A stretch of 63,736 nt of DNA, counting the filler, from an uncultured Thermoplasmatales archaeon (lineage in GTDB: Archaea; Thermoplasmatota; E2; DHVEG-1), in assembly GCA_964517155.1 (NCBI GenBank). It is 4 parts of 4 records of this genome, joined end to end, with 100 filler letters (N's around TTAATTAATTAA, not from the genome) between each part and the next. Parts side by side here need not be neighbours in the genome. Positions count along the whole stretch, not along the records: positions 28,567 to 57,692 come from CAZFAZ010000040.1; 3 more parts are not named here. One strand, 5' to 3'. Shown in pieces: positions 39,001-45,000 of the stretch. How positions within the stretch are numbered: the first letter of the stretch is position 1; the number at the start of each line of letters is the position of its first letter. Made by a program: the position numbers.

Positions 39001-42000
39001 ACCAGTTCCGTTCTAAAAAATATGATTCAAACAGCTGGATTCAAAGTCATTTTTGAAAGAGATGATGAGAATTTTTTCATAATGATTGCTGAGAAAGTTT
39101 AAGATTTTGGGAGAGATTATGCTGTTTATGCCCTGAGTTTTAAAGGAGGCATGACCCAAGTTCTGAACAAGAATTGTAAGGTGTATGACTCGAGTTCTGA
39201 ACAAAAGCCGTGCCACGCATACAGAACGCAGATTTATATAGGATTAGAAAACATGCCCTGAATACTGAACGCAGTTGACTAGGTGGGTTTTCTTCTGTTG
39301 GATGACGCGTATGCTGAACGGGGATGAGGGGTGTGTAGTATTTTTTGATTTTTTAACTTATTCTCTTGTGTGTTTAGTCTTTCTAATTATTTTTTCTATA
39401 ACACTGTATTGCTGTTCACATATGTGATAAAGCTTCAATGGTTCATATATAAACATAACAAAAGCTTTAAATTCGTGCTACTTTTACATATGAAACGTGT
39501 TACTATGACAGAAAAAATTACAAGATTTGGAGTTAGTATCGAACCAGATCTGCTTAAAAAATTTGATAAAATAATCAAAAAAGAAGGTTATACCAATAGA
39601 AGCGAAAAAATAAGGGATTTAATAAGAAAAAATCTGATAAACAAAGAAACAACAGACCCAAATACAGAAGCAATAGGGACCCTTACAATGATATATGACC
39701 ATCACACAGGAGACCTAACAAACAAATTACTAGATATGCAACATGATCATCACAGCGAAATACTAACAACCACACATGTACACATAGATCATCACAACTG
39801 TTTAGAAGTGCTAGTCTTAAAGGGAAAAACAAAAAATATACAAAAACTAGCAGACAACATTATCGCATTAAAAGGAATAAAACATGGAGAGTTAGTAATT
39901 ACTAAAAAGCAAATATAACATAAAAAAATGATAAATTTTAAAATTAAATGATTTTTTATTATATAGGTAATATTTATATATAAAAATCACTATAATATTT
40001 AACCGTATATTATGCTTGGGTTTATCGGAGATTGTATTAGATTATTTAGAGTGCATCATATGGGCGCAATAGCTATAATTCCCGTATTGGGAGCAATTAG
40101 CCAAGGATGCTCTGATTTAACAAAACTATTTATTCTATTTATTATTGGCATGTTTTTGAATATTTTTCTTTTTGTATCAAATGATGTTGTAGACGCAAAA
40201 TTAGATCGAATGTCTAAATTATCAAGAGATTTTCATGTAAGAGCTATTTCTAAAGGAACTATATCAAAGAAAACGGGCGTATATCTCTCGATTATATCAG
40301 TCATCATTGCATATATTCTTTCTTTTTTGTTTTTTTATCGTGAAAACTTTTCATTTTATTTAGGTATTCTTGCTCTATCTGCAGGAATATCTCTTTGTAC
40401 ACTTTATAACTTATTTGGCAAACGATTCTTAAGTTCAGCATTTCTAGCATCTTTTGCAACGGGCCTAGGAGTTTTTTATGGTGCATATATGACAACAAAC
40501 AATAATGTTTTTAATGTTTATACCTGGCTTTTATTTGTTCTTGTTTTTAATTTTATGTTATTTCTAACAGCAGTAATCGGAGGGTTTAAAGATGCAGGAA
40601 ATGACTGCAAGCTAGATGGAAAAACTATTGCTATATTTTTAGGAGTAAAAATAGATGAGGGTAAAAAAACCGTAATTATCCCCGCCAGTTTTAAAGTCTT
40701 TACAATACTTTTAGAAATATCTTCAATTTTTATTTTGTTTTTACCCGTCTTATTAATGCACGAACATTATGAGTTTTGGAAATTGATTTTTATATTAATT
40801 TTAAGTATTGTTTCTTTAATCTTTATTTTTAAATTTTTAAAAATAAAAAGCTATAATAATCAAAAAGTATACAAAATACTTATACCTCTTATGGCAGTTA
40901 ACTCCATGTTTTTAGCACTTATATTGTTCCCAATAATTCCCGGGCATTATGTTTTGTTTCTAACACTTTTCCCGGGCATCTGGTTTGTAATAAATTTACC
41001 AATGTTACTACTTACAAAAAAATATTTACCCAAACCAAAGTTAGAACTCGGTGAAAAAAATATATGAATGAGAAAATAAGAGAGTTTGTTAAGTTAATTC
41101 GATTATATCCTATGTTTTCTACGTTCATCGTATCCAGTTCTATCGTTACTACAAGCTATGTTTTAAACTCTTCACAACATATTATAAATCTGGAAATGTT
41201 ATTTTTGATTATTACTACAGTTTTTTCTTTGACAATTGCAACTGCTGCCTCAAATGTATTAAATCAAATCACTGATATAAAAGAAGATGAAATAACAAAA
41301 CCTTATCGTCCGATACCAAGTGGGAAAATTTCAATTAGAAAAGCTTTGATAATTTGCATAATATTTTACGTTATAGCAAGTATTATATCATTTTTAATAA
41401 ATCTATATTTTAGCTTATTTACACTCTTGTTTATTATTTTTACAATCACTTATTCAATTTATCCAAGAGTAAAAAAATTTTTTATCATAAATCAGCTGTG
41501 GATAGGTATTGCCAGAGGATGTTTTCTTATTTTGGCATCATGGAGTGTTTTTTCTAACCCACTTGAAAAAATGCCCTTAGCACTTTCAATTATAAGCTGT
41601 ATATTCATCTTTGGCGGCATGTCATCTAAAGATATTTTTGATGCAAAAGCAGATACAAAAACAGGTGTGAAAACACTTGTAAATGTAATTGGATTACAAA
41701 AAACCGCCACGCTTTCTTTATTTTTTATGACCGGGTCAATATTACTTATAATTCCCTTTATACTTCTTGACATTTTTAAATTAATTCATCTGCCCTTACT
41801 TTTTTTTATAATTCCTGTTTTTTACATTTACGTTCAGATGAAAAACTCAAAAAAATATAAAGTTTTTGAAAATGTAGCCGCATGGGTTATTATGCATGCT
41901 ACTAATTTTCTTTTTATTTTTTGTTTTGCAATATTAACTATAATATTCTCTTGATTTGTTTAGAAATTTAATTAACTCCATACAAACTATATAACATAAA

Positions 42001-45000
42001 AAAGCAAATAAAACAAAAATTATTGTTTTTATTTCACCTATTATCGGAAATAAAAGCATTGGAACAACAACTGATCGGAAAATGATTTGAACAATTATGT
42101 TTTTTCTTAATTTTTCTCTATCATAATATCTAAATCTAAACATCTTAATAGTTGATATAATTACAATTAATGTAAAAATAAAAATTAAAAATATTTGCCA
42201 TATACTGTAATTCAACTTTAAAAAAAAGATAGGTGCACTAATAAGTATCGCAGAAAAAATACGTATACCCATTCCAAATGCAATAAAGCTTTTTGGAATT
42301 ATTAATTTTTTATCTGATTCATTTACAGTTACTCCCATTTTTGTTGCATAGTTTTTAACATTTTTTTTAAAATCATGATCTGCGTCTTTTATTCCTCCGC
42401 TTATCGCAGTCATAAAAAGAGTTTGTGTAAAAAATAGTAAAGAGATTGTTATCGTTATTTCATTTAGATGTATCGTATCTGATACCATGTATGCAGCATA
42501 AGGAATTATAAGTGCTTGTGCCCCTCCTGCAAGAAACGCTGAAAAAGCAAATTTTTTGCCATAAATATTATTTATTGTTCCAACTGTTGCTGCCAACGTC
42601 AAACAAATTAAACCAAGATAAAATGAAGAATTGTTTCTAAAAAAGAATAGAAATGTTAGAAGATACACCATTATAAAACAGAAAAATGAAATAAATATAC
42701 CTGTTTGTTTTGAAATGGTTCCTTTTACAAGAGGCCTAATCCTTAATTCCTCAACTTGTTTATCTACATCTATATCTACTACATCGTTTGATACAAACAG
42801 ATAGATATATTGCAATGTTCCTATTATAAATAAAAAAATTAAAGGAGTTATTTCCTTTATACCCGTACTCAGAGCACCTAGTAACGGCGTTATTGCAAAT
42901 AAACCAATACCTTGAAGCCTGAACAGGCGTATGTAATCAATAATTTTTTCTTTCATAGTAATTTACATGGTTTTAGGTTCGAATATTGTTTTAAAAAGTA
43001 ATTTGTTCCATATTATAAATGCTAATGGTGGTATCAATACAATAATTCCGATTAGCGGGTTAAAAGTCATTAATATAACAGGCATTAGGCCATAGTTGAT
43101 AACATAGTGCAATCCTATTAGTTTTCGTGCTTTTGATCTTTTAAATTCTTTCATTTCAAGCAGGTTATATGATAACGTTAACATTATAAGAGCAATTATT
43201 CCAATTAGAGCCCATTGCACATACTTGATAGAGATTTGAGATGTTTGAAATTCAATTAATATAAAAAAGGGTAGAAAAGCAAGTCCGATATCTACTATTT
43301 GCAAAAGATATGCTAATGCTTTAAAACTTAATGGAACTGTTAATATTTTGTTTTTTACTTGTACGCCCATCTTCAAAGCAAGTGTTTTTCCACCTTGGAT
43401 ATAGTCGTTTTCAGCATCCTTTAATCCTCCTGTGATAAACTGCATATATAAAACCTGAATTGTACCAACAGCAGCTATAATCCAAGTTATCTGCGATAAA
43501 TTTGTAATATTTCCAGTTACAGTTGTTGCCCCATAGATAATTAAGAAAAATATTCCTGTTGTGACAAAGACATCCATACCTGGAAATTTTTTGCTGTATA
43601 AATCATAAATAGTTGCAAGAACTATAGAAATAGTGTATATTATTATAGGCAAATACATGTTTGTTTTTACTGCAAAATAAAATGTTATTAAATAAGCAAT
43701 TATTAAAGATAAAATTGTAAATATCCAAGCCTGTTTTATTGAAATTGTTCCAGTAATTAAAGGCCGATTTTTAATTTCTTTAGAATATTTATCTATTTTA
43801 TAATCTACAATATCATTTAATACAAATCCATAGGCATGGGAAAAAAAACCCAGTAAAAAAAGTAAAAAAAGTGTGAGTATATCAAATTGTTTTTCTGCAA
43901 GTGCACCCATCACGGCCATTAAACTAGTTAAAGTTCCACTGAAGGGTCTCATTAATTTCAAATACTCTAGCATGCTTTTTTTCATTTATACAAAAGTAAT
44001 ATTTGTATTTTTTGTAGCATAACATAAAATACATATAATAATAGTTATATATTAAAACAAATATTTTATTTTGTGAAATGAGATGAACACAAAAGAACAA
44101 GGAAAGCTAATTTTCATTATTTCCCCTTGCAGATCAGGGTCAACGGCTTTGTTATATTCCTTTGCACAAATTCCCAAAACAAAAACATATTATCAACCAA
44201 TAAAAGGAACTATAAGAGAAAAAAAAAGCTTTATAATGCCTAAACTATCAAAAGGAAAAAATATTTTTAAAGAAACTCTAGGGCACGAAAATGAATTAGT
44301 ATGCACATACAATCCATTAAATTTCATACCAAAAAACATAGAGTATAAAACACTATTTTTATTCCGAGATCCAATAAACACATGGCAATCATGGAAAAAC
44401 CTTGCATGGATGCCTAAAATTGAATTGTTTTTACAGGCATACAACTCAGCCTTTAAAATATACAAAGAAGAGCAAGAAAAAAATCCAAAAAATACAACAG
44501 CTATGATACTTGAAGAATTAAATAACGGTAACACGGACATAATTCTTAAAAAAATATGTAACAGTTTGAATTTAAAATATACTAAAAAAATGTTATATTG
44601 GGGTCACAATGCAGATTTGAATAAATTTGTGTATCTTTCACAGATAAACAAAAAAGTTGCTTATGACTGCTCAGGCTTACTTAAAAAATCTAAAGGATTA
44701 AATGAAATAAAAGACAATGGTTTTCCAAATAATAACAACCCCGAAAGAAAGATAATTGAAAATAATCTAAGAAAAAAATATATTTTTGTTAAAGACCAAT
44801 TTCAAATTATGTATCAAAACAAAAATCACAAGTTACCCTTACATGACATAAATGTCGTGACTTTACCTCAAGCAAAAAAAATTCCTGACGGTGTTTTAAT
44901 CTAACAAATTACATGACATCCATCCCACAAACTAAAATTTGAAAATTTCTTGCTTGGATTTATGTTAAAAAAACTAATCCTTCATTGCACTGTTTAGCTC

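Follow-up and report, generated by a model that had tools for sequence, protein, structure and literature searches.

What could four UbiA-family prenyltransferase genes be doing side by side in an uncultured Thermoplasmatales archaeon, and where did they come from? The genes lie on contig C40, within a window (the whole stretch of DNA that was analysed) of 63,736 nucleotides from a genome, G000, that is represented by a 91-contig bin, 90.8% complete with 0.51% contamination; absences are judged from this bin and from the genome samples named with them. The survey's finding had been of four UbiA genes followed by a sulfotransferase-like gene, and this is the arrangement that we observed, with four intact open reading frames (P1 to P4) and a gene for a protein of PAPS-sulfotransferase fold next to them:

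38470-39102: SAM methyltransferase, UbiE/COQ5-family match
40012..41067, + strand: UbiA paralog P1, 351 aa, Cb-derived clade, Pfam UbiA 57.2 bits
41064..41954, + strand: UbiA paralog P2, 296 aa, group B, C79-type subclade, Pfam UbiA 124.4 bits
41934..42956, − strand: UbiA paralog P3, 340 aa, Cb-like, Pfam UbiA 65.5 bits
42963..43985, − strand: UbiA paralog P4, 340 aa, Ca-type, Pfam UbiA 89.4 bits
44083..44904, + strand: orphan sulfotransferase-fold protein, 273 aa, from AlphaFold model and Foldseek

All four paralogs pass the 34.2-bit Pfam UbiA cut-off. They are complete frames arranged as two convergent pairs (++ −−) and not as four co-directional genes: the P1 stop and P2 start overlap by 4 bases, the 3′ ends of P2 and P3 overlap by 21 bases, P4 and P3 share a strand, with P4 upstream across a 6-base gap, and a spacer of 97 bases (43986-44082) separates P4 from the divergently transcribed sulfotransferase gene. 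The order P2, P3, P4, sulfotransferase is retained at 44-74% identity on an independent metagenome contig, L056, where the P3 ortholog (69% identity) occupies the equivalent position and the sulfotransferase-fold gene adjoins the P4 ortholog as on C40, which argues for a genuine array kept under selection. P4 has relatives at 74-82% identity in only four protein clusters, the remainder being at most 56% identical.

A six-frame search of the whole genome gave 17 UbiA matches above the cut-off, none with internal stops, on C1, C10 (two), C23, C40 (four), C56 (three), C57, C58, C59 (two), C79 and C85, bearing out the pairs or triplets that the survey had listed on C10, C56 and C59. Its total of 17 holds for matches and falls to 16 for loci, as it had itself flagged, because an end-to-end alignment of C57 (7431 bp) with C58 (7421 bp) shows 89.5% nucleotide identity, which makes them a single locus assembled twice. 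This double assembly, the fragmentation of the bin and a C23 copy with no ATG, GTG or TTG start ahead of its first transmembrane segment would fit a count raised by artefacts of assembly or binning, or by duplicates in decay; we consider this highly improbable, as all 17 frames are open, contamination is low, orthologs keep their motif residues invariant, L056 retains the C40 order, and two single-contig genomes of the family hold 6 and 16 copies. The description of the expansion as a record, by contrast, has to be withdrawn. Counts over 41 family genomes run from 1 to 18, with 18 in G012, 17 in G026 and 16 in four more (G083 likewise has 17), the lowest counts (1 and 2) coming from bins 64% and 74% complete, and the density of 10.7 UbiA genes per megabase in G000 is slightly above that in G020 and G028 (about 10). 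Among 121 genomes of the phylum at least 85% complete, family f1 carries 6-17 copies, against 4-9 in the class's remaining families and 1-14 elsewhere; outside the class, nine or more were seen only in genomes of 2.8-5 Mb.

The 17 genes form six sequence groups with between-group identities of 22-35%, and three types, Ca, Cb and B, recur together across the family. At 24 of 24 family loci they are found, with variations, in the order Ca, Cb, OX, B, with OX and B adjacent in 23; OX, an FAD oxidoreductase of the phytoene-desaturase (PDS) family, has matches both among carotenoid desaturases (4rep, 4dgk) and among uncharacterised archaeal proteins. The C40 array comprises one Ca gene (P4), two Cb genes (P1 and P3) and one B gene (P2), with no OX. 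P4 is 55% identical to the Ca gene C56_15100 and falls inside the Ca clade (SH-aLRT 99), P3 is 41% identical to the Cb gene C56_14027 and 37% to P1, and P2 is 43% and 39% identical to the B genes C79_9473 and C56_10549, respectively. P1 and P3 are sisters and jointly sister to the Cb clade (SH-aLRT 96 and 99), and the tree, a quick search in which P1 and P2 have long branches, puts P2, P3 and P4 each in its matching operon clade. Judged by these sequence relationships, the C40 array is a diverged second copy of the family-wide Ca-Cb-OX-B operon, an origin that the survey overlooked, as it did the carotenoid cluster and the partner enzymes pointing to lipid-tail tailoring that are described below. 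Because the array lacks OX, inferences drawn from the C56-type operon may not carry over to it. A single copy of OX (49-74% identity) occurs in 37 of 41 family genomes, and its profile was detected in 8/9, 8/8 and 3/3 genomes of families f1, f3 and f6 and in 0 of 97 genomes outside the class. In two sister families Cb and OX are adjacent at 10 of 10 loci, with only the pair present. We propose that the family operon grew out of a class-wide Cb-OX pair; in the C40 copy OX would then have dropped out, and a second Cb gene and an orphan PAPS-type sulfotransferase would have been added.

P1, P2, P3 and P4 all carry Asp-rich motifs 1 and 3, which are invariant in 20 Ca sequences, 19 Cb sequences and four P1 orthologs; together with Y-x5-K, they are the motifs named for MjDGGGPS in the accessible text of a review (PMC9385802). 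Orthologs of P1 (69, 55 and 60% identity) share invariant N57, D58, D61, D65, K193, D194, D198 and R77-A78, the P1 clade having RA instead of RP. P4 has the Y-x5-K motif, and P1 has it with Arg replacing Lys; P3 has motifs 1 and 3 intact, with Asn at the aligned Tyr position of motif 2. From the intact motifs we infer that P1 to P4 are probably catalytically active, the P1 and P3 substitutions weighing against.

The neighboring 273-aa protein (44083-44904) gave no Pfam, NCBIfam or PDB sequence match and has only three homologs in 5.8 billion protein clusters. Its AlphaFold (AF2) model (pLDDT 73) yielded 53 Foldseek matches at E<=0.001, all PAPS-dependent sulfotransferases among the matches listed, including SULT7A1, TPST2 and the CurM sulfotransferase domain at TM 0.44-0.53. 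Two stretches, a P-loop-like SPCRSGST and an FRxP, are invariant in four of four sequences of its family and lie, we presume, where the 5′-PSB and 3′-PB motifs do. An APS kinase gene and a CysD/CysN-like pair sit on C1, which makes sulfation of a product feasible. Of five sulfotransferase-type genes, three have a UbiA gene within 6 kb, compared with 0.38 expected (P about 0.004, 20,000 random placements), the 6-kb distance having been picked after the data were seen.

The survey had the paralogs serving several acceptors. Given the diverse groups, intact motifs and differing gene contexts across the genome, and given that UbiA enzymes group by acceptor rather than donor (according to the accessible text of PMC9385802), this plurality is reasonable, while the acceptors themselves are conjectural. 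In agreement with the survey's statement that a quinone-ring pathway is absent, chorismate synthase and MqnA/VitK2_biosynth were not found in the 90.8%-complete G000; nor was COX1, and quinone and heme O roles are disfavoured. Besides these absences, P1-P4 all fall under every NCBIfam equivalog cut-off, the best reaching 90 bits (P2, NF009523) against 269 and P1 giving no NCBIfam match. Aromatic or soluble acceptors (a meroterpenoid, a secondary metabolite or a salvaged quinone ring), with the sulfotransferase and methyltransferase as tailoring enzymes of a natural-product cluster, would suit the first motif of group B, including P2 (NQxxDxxxD), that group's matches of 48-64 bits to homogentisate phytyltransferase and chlorophyll synthase models, automatic names reading '4-hydroxybenzoate polyprenyltransferase', the UbiE/COQ5-family methyltransferase nearby, and the natural-product-like surroundings of the UbiA genes on C10 (radical SAM, PqqD, C39 peptidase) and C57 (AMP-binding, radical SAM, sulfotransferase). 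We think this unlikely: every model score is far under the family cut-offs, the chorismate and futalosine routes were not found in G000, the conserved operon partners act on isoprenoid chains, and the near-universal, single-copy occurrence of the operon in the family suits a housekeeping membrane function better than a sporadic secondary metabolite.

The partners deserve closer description. On C56 of G000 the UbiA genes are accompanied by a CrtD/CrtI-family flavoenzyme and a CrtC-like protein; AttH/CrtC-like genes occur near the operon at 10 of 24 loci as well as on C56, an assignment made from sub-threshold matches (best Pfam E 6.7e-5, 9-10 of 15 members; PDB E 0.03), and geranylgeranyl-reductase paralogs are inserted at 5-6 of 24 loci. 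PDS-family flavoenzymes, AttH/CrtC-like hydratases and geranylgeranyl-reductase paralogs are families with demonstrated roles in tailoring archaeal lipid tails: hydroxyarchaeol is made by a PDS-family protein (Mori 2015, as cited in later work) and OH-GDGT by an AttH-like hydratase (bioRxiv 10.1101/2025.10.20.683597). The operon partners point specifically to isoprenoid lipid-tail tailoring.

A carotenoid acceptor also needed consideration, since G000 carries a complete-looking crtY-crtI-crtB-crtZ-like cluster on C34 (lycopene cyclase, CrtI, CrtB and a CrtZ-like hydroxylase). P1-P4, or some of them, could be lycopene elongases of the LyeJ/CrtEb-like type, adding C5 to carotenoid ends to give C45/C50 pigments with hydratase and desaturase partners as in bacterioruberin synthesis; the enzyme families of the C56 operon match the haloarchaeal bacterioruberin cluster of LyeJ (UbiA family), CrtD and CruF as given in the accessible text of PMC9258230, and that of PMC9585477 describes gene sets for bacterioruberin and for zeaxanthin in a single subgroup of Thermoprofundales. 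However, SQS_PSY (phytoene synthase) was found in none of the 11 sampled sister-family genomes (f3 and f6) carrying Cb-OX; among the family genomes of at least 90% completeness, 8 of 20 have OX without it; and it gave no match in the closed genome G002, where the operon is present. These absences argue that the operon is not carotenoid-dependent. In addition, no Caroten_synth/CruF domain was observed beside any UbiA gene, and weak NCBIfam matches to models that we take to be elongase-like fall in group D and not in B or C. A pigment role is thus improbable.

The P4 model (pLDDT 90.9) also matches a membrane-bound PRTase (8j8j, TM 0.63, target-normalised), there are weak NCBIfam matches to decaprenyl-phosphate phosphoribosyltransferase, and the first motif is degenerate in groups D and E, all of which would be consistent with UbiA-type terpene cyclases or with DPPR-synthase-like polyprenyl-phosphate phosphoribosyl/glycosyl-carrier enzymes for cell-envelope glycans. 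For P1-P4 we regard this as very unlikely, as DGGGPS is the better match both by sequence (P2 to MjDGGGPS 6m31, E 7.7e-15) and by fold (P4 model to 6m31, E 5.5e-9, TM 0.72, target-normalised), DPPR matches stay at or below 32 bits against cut-offs of 207-234, and no conserved glycosyltransferase was found in the operon across the 24 family loci.

With moderate confidence, we favor P1-P4 as active DGGGPS-like prenyltransferases that make or decorate uncharacterised isoprenoid ether lipids, encoded by a copy of the operon. They would be Mg2+-dependent intramembrane prenyl-diphosphate transferases from three lineage-specific subclades (Ca, Cb and B) of the DGGGPS-like UbiA branch, transferring prenyl chains most likely onto acceptors of the glycerol-ether-lipid type or onto hydroxylated isoprenoids. 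Tailoring of the isoprenoid tails by the hydratase, reductase and OX partners would follow, and the sulfotransferase may put sulfate on a product hydroxyl. The outcome would be lineage-specific membrane lipids rather than quinones, heme O or C50 carotenoids. Beside the gene integrity, subfamily structure, synteny, phyletic range and fold observed here, the lipid nature of the acceptor is our inference, database names for Ca, Cb and B members being all generic.

Among known systems, the 273-aa model shares its fold with PAPS-dependent sulfotransferases (SULT, TPST, CurM/OLS domains, retinol dehydratase), although it lacks a Pfam sulfotransferase profile match and its TM scores are modest. As in the LyeJ-CrtD-CruF cluster, so far as the accessible text describes it, a UbiA gene stands beside a PDS-family flavoenzyme and a hydratase; here, however, the hydratase is AttH/CrtC-like and not CruF, an operon holds up to three UbiA genes, and the core Cb-OX pair occurs in genomes without phytoene synthase. 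OX and the AttH/CrtC-like proteins share families, a family-level likeness, with the hydroxyarchaeol synthase of M. acetivorans and with the hydroxy-GDGT synthase Hgs, both of which target double bonds in the isoprenoid tails of ether lipids; the accessible descriptions of these enzymes mention no UbiA partner, whereas the genes here have one. In comparison with DGGGPS (MjDGGGPS, PDB 6m31/7bpu), P4 is only 22% identical, scores reach 51-90 bits where the equivalog cut-offs stand at 269-353, and Ca and Cb exceed it in length by some 60 residues, having additional helices at the C-terminus and ending in a conserved PKTM or PRM; C1 (264 bits against 269) and C23 hold separate, better DGGGPS candidates in G000. 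Nevertheless, DGGGPS is the closest relative of solved structure, the best match by sequence and fold for P2 and P4, the N/D-rich motif 1, Y-x5-K and D-rich motif 3 are common to both apart from the P1 and P3 substitutions, and the genomic company, geranylgeranyl-reductase paralogs and lipid-tail hydratase families around the operon, fits.

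The four UbiA genes on contig C40 of the genome under study (G000; 1,585,476 bases in 91 contigs, 90.8% complete, 0.51% contaminated) lie together and are followed by a sulfotransferase-like gene, an arrangement reported by the survey and on which the open reading frames, Pfam scores and predicted folds agree.

Genes of the UbiA array on contig C40 (window positions)
40012-41067, + strand: P1, UbiA gene, 351 aa, as in the ORF listing
41064-41954, + strand: P2, UbiA gene, 296 aa; its start overlaps the P1 stop by 4 bases
41934-42956, - strand: P3, UbiA gene, 340 aa; convergent with P2, overlapping it by 21 bases
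42963-43985, - strand: P4, UbiA gene, 340 aa; 6 bases upstream of P3
44083-44904, + strand: sulfotransferase-like ORF, 273 aa; separated from P4 by a 97-base divergent spacer

Contig C40 spans window 28567-57692. Upstream of the array it encodes a FecCD-type ABC importer, a SAM methyltransferase and a NikR-type regulator, and downstream small membrane proteins and an archease. The methyltransferase (210 aa) and the regulator occupy window 38470-39918, just upstream of P1; the former matches generic families and also Ubie_methyltran at 41.8 bits. P1-P4 are predicted members of the UbiA superfamily (PF01040) as judged by profile score (57.2, 124.4, 65.5 and 89.4 bits, respectively; cut-off 34.2) and by Asp-rich motifs. 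The first of these reads NDxxDxxxD in P1, P3 and P4 and NQxxDxxxD in P2, a second motif of the DxxxD type is present in all four, and both are invariant across 20 sequences of the Ca subclade of UbiA proteins, 19 of the Cb subclade and 4 of the P1 clade. None of the four reaches an NCBIfam equivalog cut-off, including those for DGGGP synthase (EC 2.5.1.42; NF009521, NF009522, NF009512 and NF009523): P2 scores best, with 90 vs 269 bits for NF009523, P4 reaches 75 vs 269 bits, P3 has no match to these DGGGP synthase models, and P1 has no NCBIfam match of any kind. Pseudogene decay was rejected as an explanation, as all frames are open and motif residues are invariant in the clade alignments.

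The catalytic signature of MjDGGGPS, as outlined in PMC9385802, consists of N62, D66-x3-D70, Y125-x5-K130 and a D183/D187/D190 motif. All three MjDGGGPS motifs are found in P4, where the Y-x5-K motif is YDLYSKK; at the same position P1 has YNLFGKR, with Arg for Lys, P3 has Asn at the aligned Tyr, and P2 has Y-x6-K, and throughout the P1 clade RA stands where RP is expected. P4, the only one of the four to be modelled (AlphaFold, pLDDT 90.9), matches 6m31, 4od4, 4tq3, 8j8j and 8djk with TM scores of 0.63-0.76 normalised to the target; its best fold match is MjDGGGPS (E 5.5e-9, TM 0.72 on the target, 22% identity), followed by ApUbiA, AfUbiA, a membrane PRTase and UBIAD1. The Ca sequences end in a P-K-T-M peptide (20/20, alignment A4) and the Cb sequences have a P-R-M consensus there (A5); the corresponding end of P4 lies at window 42963-42977.

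A six-frame search of the whole genome returned 17 UbiA matches, every frame open, in line with the 17 genes of the survey's finding. Contigs C57 (7431 bases) and C58 (7421 bases) align colinearly over their whole length at 89.5% nucleotide identity, the pattern left when two variants of a single locus are assembled separately, as had been suspected, so that 16 is the fair locus count. The description of this expansion as a record did not hold up: among 41 genomes of the family, UbiA counts run from 1 to 18, with 18 in G012, 17 in G026 and 16 in each of G003, G005, G008 and G028, and the lowest counts belong to the least complete bins. Across 121 genomes sampled from the phylum, each at least 85% complete, the organism's own family (f1) has 6-17, the remaining families of its class have 4-9 and all others 1-14; order-level counts, which are of candidates rather than scored matches, are 8-29 for f1 and 3-14 for f2. 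The expansion is thus real and family-wide, and G000 stands near its top without being a unique record.

All-against-all BLAST, NCBIfam scores and motifs together divide the genes of G000 into six groups with about 22-35% identity between groups, and the further pairs and triplets noted earlier comprise two genes on C10, two on C59 and three on C56.

Six sequence groups of UbiA genes in G000
Group A: C1, C23; best DGGGPS candidates, C1 scoring 264 vs a cut-off of 269 bits
Group B: P2, C79, C56_10549; NQxxDxxxD as first motif
Group C: P1, P3, P4, C56_14027, C56_15100; about 340 aa, extra C-terminal helices
Group D: two genes on C10, and C85; motif 1 without its first Asp
Group E: two genes on C59; Glu for Asp, adjoining a geranylgeranyl-reductase-family gene over the TIGR02032 cut-off
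Group F: C57/C58

Several of these loci have distinctive surroundings. In the C23 gene (G000:C23:1123-1971, L026), the second of the DGGGPS-like genes, none of ATG, GTG and TTG occurs ahead of the first predicted membrane helix; starting at the first canonical codon would cost about 37 residues, and GGTGA stands just upstream of an in-frame ATA, so the start codon may be a non-standard one or the sequence may be in error. On C10 (21703-29630; L019:5706-13630) the order is PEMT-like methyltransferase, group D UbiA, radical SAM, PqqD-like protein, group D UbiA, Peptidase_C39_2, LCM methyltransferase, an unknown gene, Sulfotransfer_3 and a transposase, a peptide-maturation-like set with the two UbiA genes, both lacking the first Asp of motif 1, interleaved. 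On C59 (5761-14363; L020:761-9360) a GT1 glycosyltransferase, an 834-aa LanC-like protein, LPG_synthase_TM and an HTH protein precede the two group E genes and the geranylgeranyl-reductase-family gene. C57/C58 (L021, L022) carry a 433-aa unknown protein, the group F UbiA, an NAS-like methyltransferase, a 415-aa unknown protein, Sulfotransfer_4, an AMP-binding enzyme and a radical SAM enzyme; the two contigs resemble a bubble between strain variants, within a gene cluster of biosynthetic appearance.

Judged by sequence relationships, the array on contig C40 duplicates a conserved operon, which on contig C56 has the order Ca, Cb, OX, B, where B is a third UbiA subclade and OX a flavoenzyme of the phytoene-desaturase family. 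Identity is 55% between P4 and C56_15100 (Ca), 41% between P3 and C56_14027 (Cb), and 39-43% between P2 and the remaining B genes. We surveyed 20 loci around orthologs of the C56 OX and 4 around P4 homologs; a search of genome contigs with P4 alone gave 4 relevant loci, all C56-type orthologs. The C56-type gene order, with variations, was found in 24/24 loci, with OX adjoining B in 23/24. OX itself is a single-copy ortholog (49-74% identity) in 37 of the 41 family genomes, the four without it being 64, 74, 92 and 94% complete. AttH/CrtC-like genes accompany the operon in 10/24 loci and extra geranylgeranyl reductase (GGR) paralogs in 5-6/24. A TauE/SafE sulfite-exporter-family gene divergently adjoins the C56 Ca gene (G000:C56:16304-17092; L018:13304-14089) and recurs at 76% identity at the equivalent position in G034, a further case of a gene related to sulfur beside a UbiA array. 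In a closed relative (CP070724.1; L028:6706-7749) a 348-aa protein directly upstream of Ca has a sub-threshold match to the phytoene/squalene synthase profile SQS_PSY (19.4 bits, E 9e-4); it may be a divergent enzyme that binds prenyl diphosphates and has joined the operon in that genome.

A quick maximum-likelihood tree of 96 rows, in which P1 and P2 sit on long branches, places P4 and three close metagenome orthologs within the Ca clade (SH-aLRT 99), P1 and P3 as sisters (96) whose joint sister group comprises all Cb orthologs (99), and P2 within the C79-type B clade (99). In two sister families (f3 and f6) the Cb-OX pair stands alone in 10/10 loci. An OX profile was found in 8/9 f1, 8/8 f3 and 3/3 f6 genomes, in 0/1 genomes of each of f2, f4 and f5, and in 0/97 genomes of other classes. 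The simplest history would start from a class-level Cb-OX pair, pass through a family-level Ca-Cb-OX-B operon and end in an additional, lineage-specific array, P1-P2/P3-P4. Misassembly does not account for this array, since a metagenome contig (L056) keeps its order and orientation, with P2-like (53%), P3-like (69%), P4-like (74%) and sulfotransferase-like (44%) genes. P1 orthologs have 69, 55 and 60% identity, and two of them probably share contigs with orthologs of P4 and of the sulfotransferase, judged from equal contig sizes. A protein Atlas search returned only generic UbiA clusters, and database names for Ca, Cb and B members are likewise generic only.

The product of 44083-44904 has no Pfam match even at E up to 10, no NCBIfam match and no PDB sequence match, and its homologs number three among 5.8 billion protein clusters. 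As a query, it found nothing in G005, G012, G026, G083 or G003, five genomes that include no positive control. A model of moderate confidence (pLDDT 73), built from a 4-sequence alignment, gave 53 Foldseek matches at E<=0.001 (E from 2e-5, TM 0.44-0.53); those listed are all PAPS sulfotransferases, among them the activating domains of CurM and olefin synthase and retinol dehydratase. The stretches SPCRSGST (P-loop-like) and FRxP, which we take to correspond to PAPS-binding motifs, are invariant in 4/4 sequences, and the protein is accordingly predicted by the model to have a sulfotransferase fold with a P-loop-like PAPS-binding stretch. PAPS supply in G000 is plausible, because contig C1 encodes an APS kinase (226 bits) beside a CysD/CysN-like pair. 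These genes, a PAPS_reduct-domain (CysD-like) protein and an EF-Tu-like GTPase (CysN-like) among them, lie together with another sulfotransferase-like ORF at G000:C1:8592-12940, some 4-8 kb away from the strongest DGGGPS candidate. Of five sulfotransferase-type genes, three are no more than 6 kb from a UbiA gene, vs 0.38 expected (P about 0.004; 20,000 random placements, C58 left out, distance chosen after the fact).

Quinone and heme roles for these UbiA proteins are disfavoured, because scores fall far under the cut-offs and because chorismate synthase, MqnA and COX1 were not found in the 90.8%-complete genome. A UbiA/MenA/MqnP role (4-hydroxybenzoate or DHNA as acceptor) was rejected on scores of at most 52 bits vs 246-420 and on a search for ring-precursor pathways that found neither chorismate synthase nor MqnA, which bears out the survey on this point, and a heme O synthase (CyoE/CtaB) role on scores of at most 37 bits vs 210-285. 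A carotenoid role needs weighing because OX belongs to the phytoene-desaturase family, a 325-aa gene within the C56 operon is weakly CrtC/AttH-like, haloarchaea are described as encoding LyeJ, of the UbiA family, together with CrtD and CruF (PMC9258230), and G000 has a carotenoid cluster on C34. That cluster (G000:C34:17353-21038; L032:7353-11038; + strand) comprises in a row a lycopene cyclase (PF18916), a CrtI-type amine oxidase (490 aa), a phytoene/squalene synthase (159 bits) and a small FA_hydroxylase-family (CrtZ-like) protein. Of the 41 family genomes, 16 have an SQS_PSY match above cut-off, and OX is present with SQS_PSY absent in 8/20 family genomes at least 90% complete and in 11/11 sister-family (f3/f6) genomes covered by both searches, so that the core Cb-OX pair is independent of C40 (carbon-number) carotenoids. 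Co-occurrence with phytoene synthase, expected of a lycopene elongase (LyeJ/CrtEb), therefore fails for the ancestral pair and the operon; G000 itself carries crtB, so this failure covers the pair and operon and not the array on contig C40 alone. The models NF009516, NF010119 and NF009608, presumably of lycopene elongases, each scored over cut-off in one control genome.

Every member does have an ether-lipid route, in G000 made up of GGGPS (PcrB, on C71), the group A DGGGPS candidates and a canonical GGR, and with GGGPS encoded, GGGP would be available as a substrate. The partner families favour lipid-tail chemistry and speak against quinones, heme and dependence on such carotenoids. A phytoene-desaturase-family protein of Methanosarcina acetivorans is cited as making hydroxyarchaeol (Mori et al. 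2015, as cited elsewhere), and an AttH-like hydratase is described as making hydroxy-GDGTs (bioRxiv 10.1101/2025.10.20.683597); with these precedents and the AttH/CrtC-like and GGR companions, we infer from context that the operon and, by descent, the array on contig C40 would serve ether-lipid or isoprenoid-tail chemistry. The multi-acceptor toolkit that the survey proposed for the paralogs is a reasonable hypothesis. More specifically, we tentatively suggest, while thinking it rather unlikely, that the Cb-OX pair, enlarged step by step to Ca-Cb-OX-B and then to P1-P4 plus the sulfotransferase, forms an undescribed ether-lipid branch, found only in these abundant, uncultured sediment Thermoplasmatota, whose products are membrane lipids that are branched, hydroxylated and, in some of the lineages, also sulfated. 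The prenyl group might be transferred either onto hydroxyls put on isoprenoid tails by hydratases or onto non-glycerol backbones.

To the survey's finding the present analysis adds six subfamilies, a class-restricted UbiA-flavoenzyme pair, its stepwise expansion and its partner families. Our literature search, paper supplements aside, found no description of the UbiA expansion, the operon or an archaeal UbiA-sulfotransferase link, and no paper pairing 'UbiA' with 'Thermoprofundales'. The terms 'UbiA' and 'prenyltransferase' had been called absent from two Thermoprofundales genome papers; in the main text of PMC9585477 (the main Thermoprofundales paper, with a carotenoid section) 'prenyl', 'quinone', 'menaquinone', 'lipid' and 'heme' do not occur. 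As these archaea are uncultured, their membrane lipids are out of reach of culture work and can be approached through genes only, and the interest of the finding is that it yields, for archaeal-lipid biochemists, a short and concrete list of directly testable candidate genes. Should the products be ordinary archaeol variants or carotenoids, the expansion would merely be a lineage-specific paralog family; should they be new lipids, orphan sedimentary biomarkers could gain a source organism and the known acceptor range of the UbiA superfamily would be widened. A near-universal, class-restricted operon joins DGGGPS-like enzymes with two families recently shown to hydroxylate archaeal lipids.
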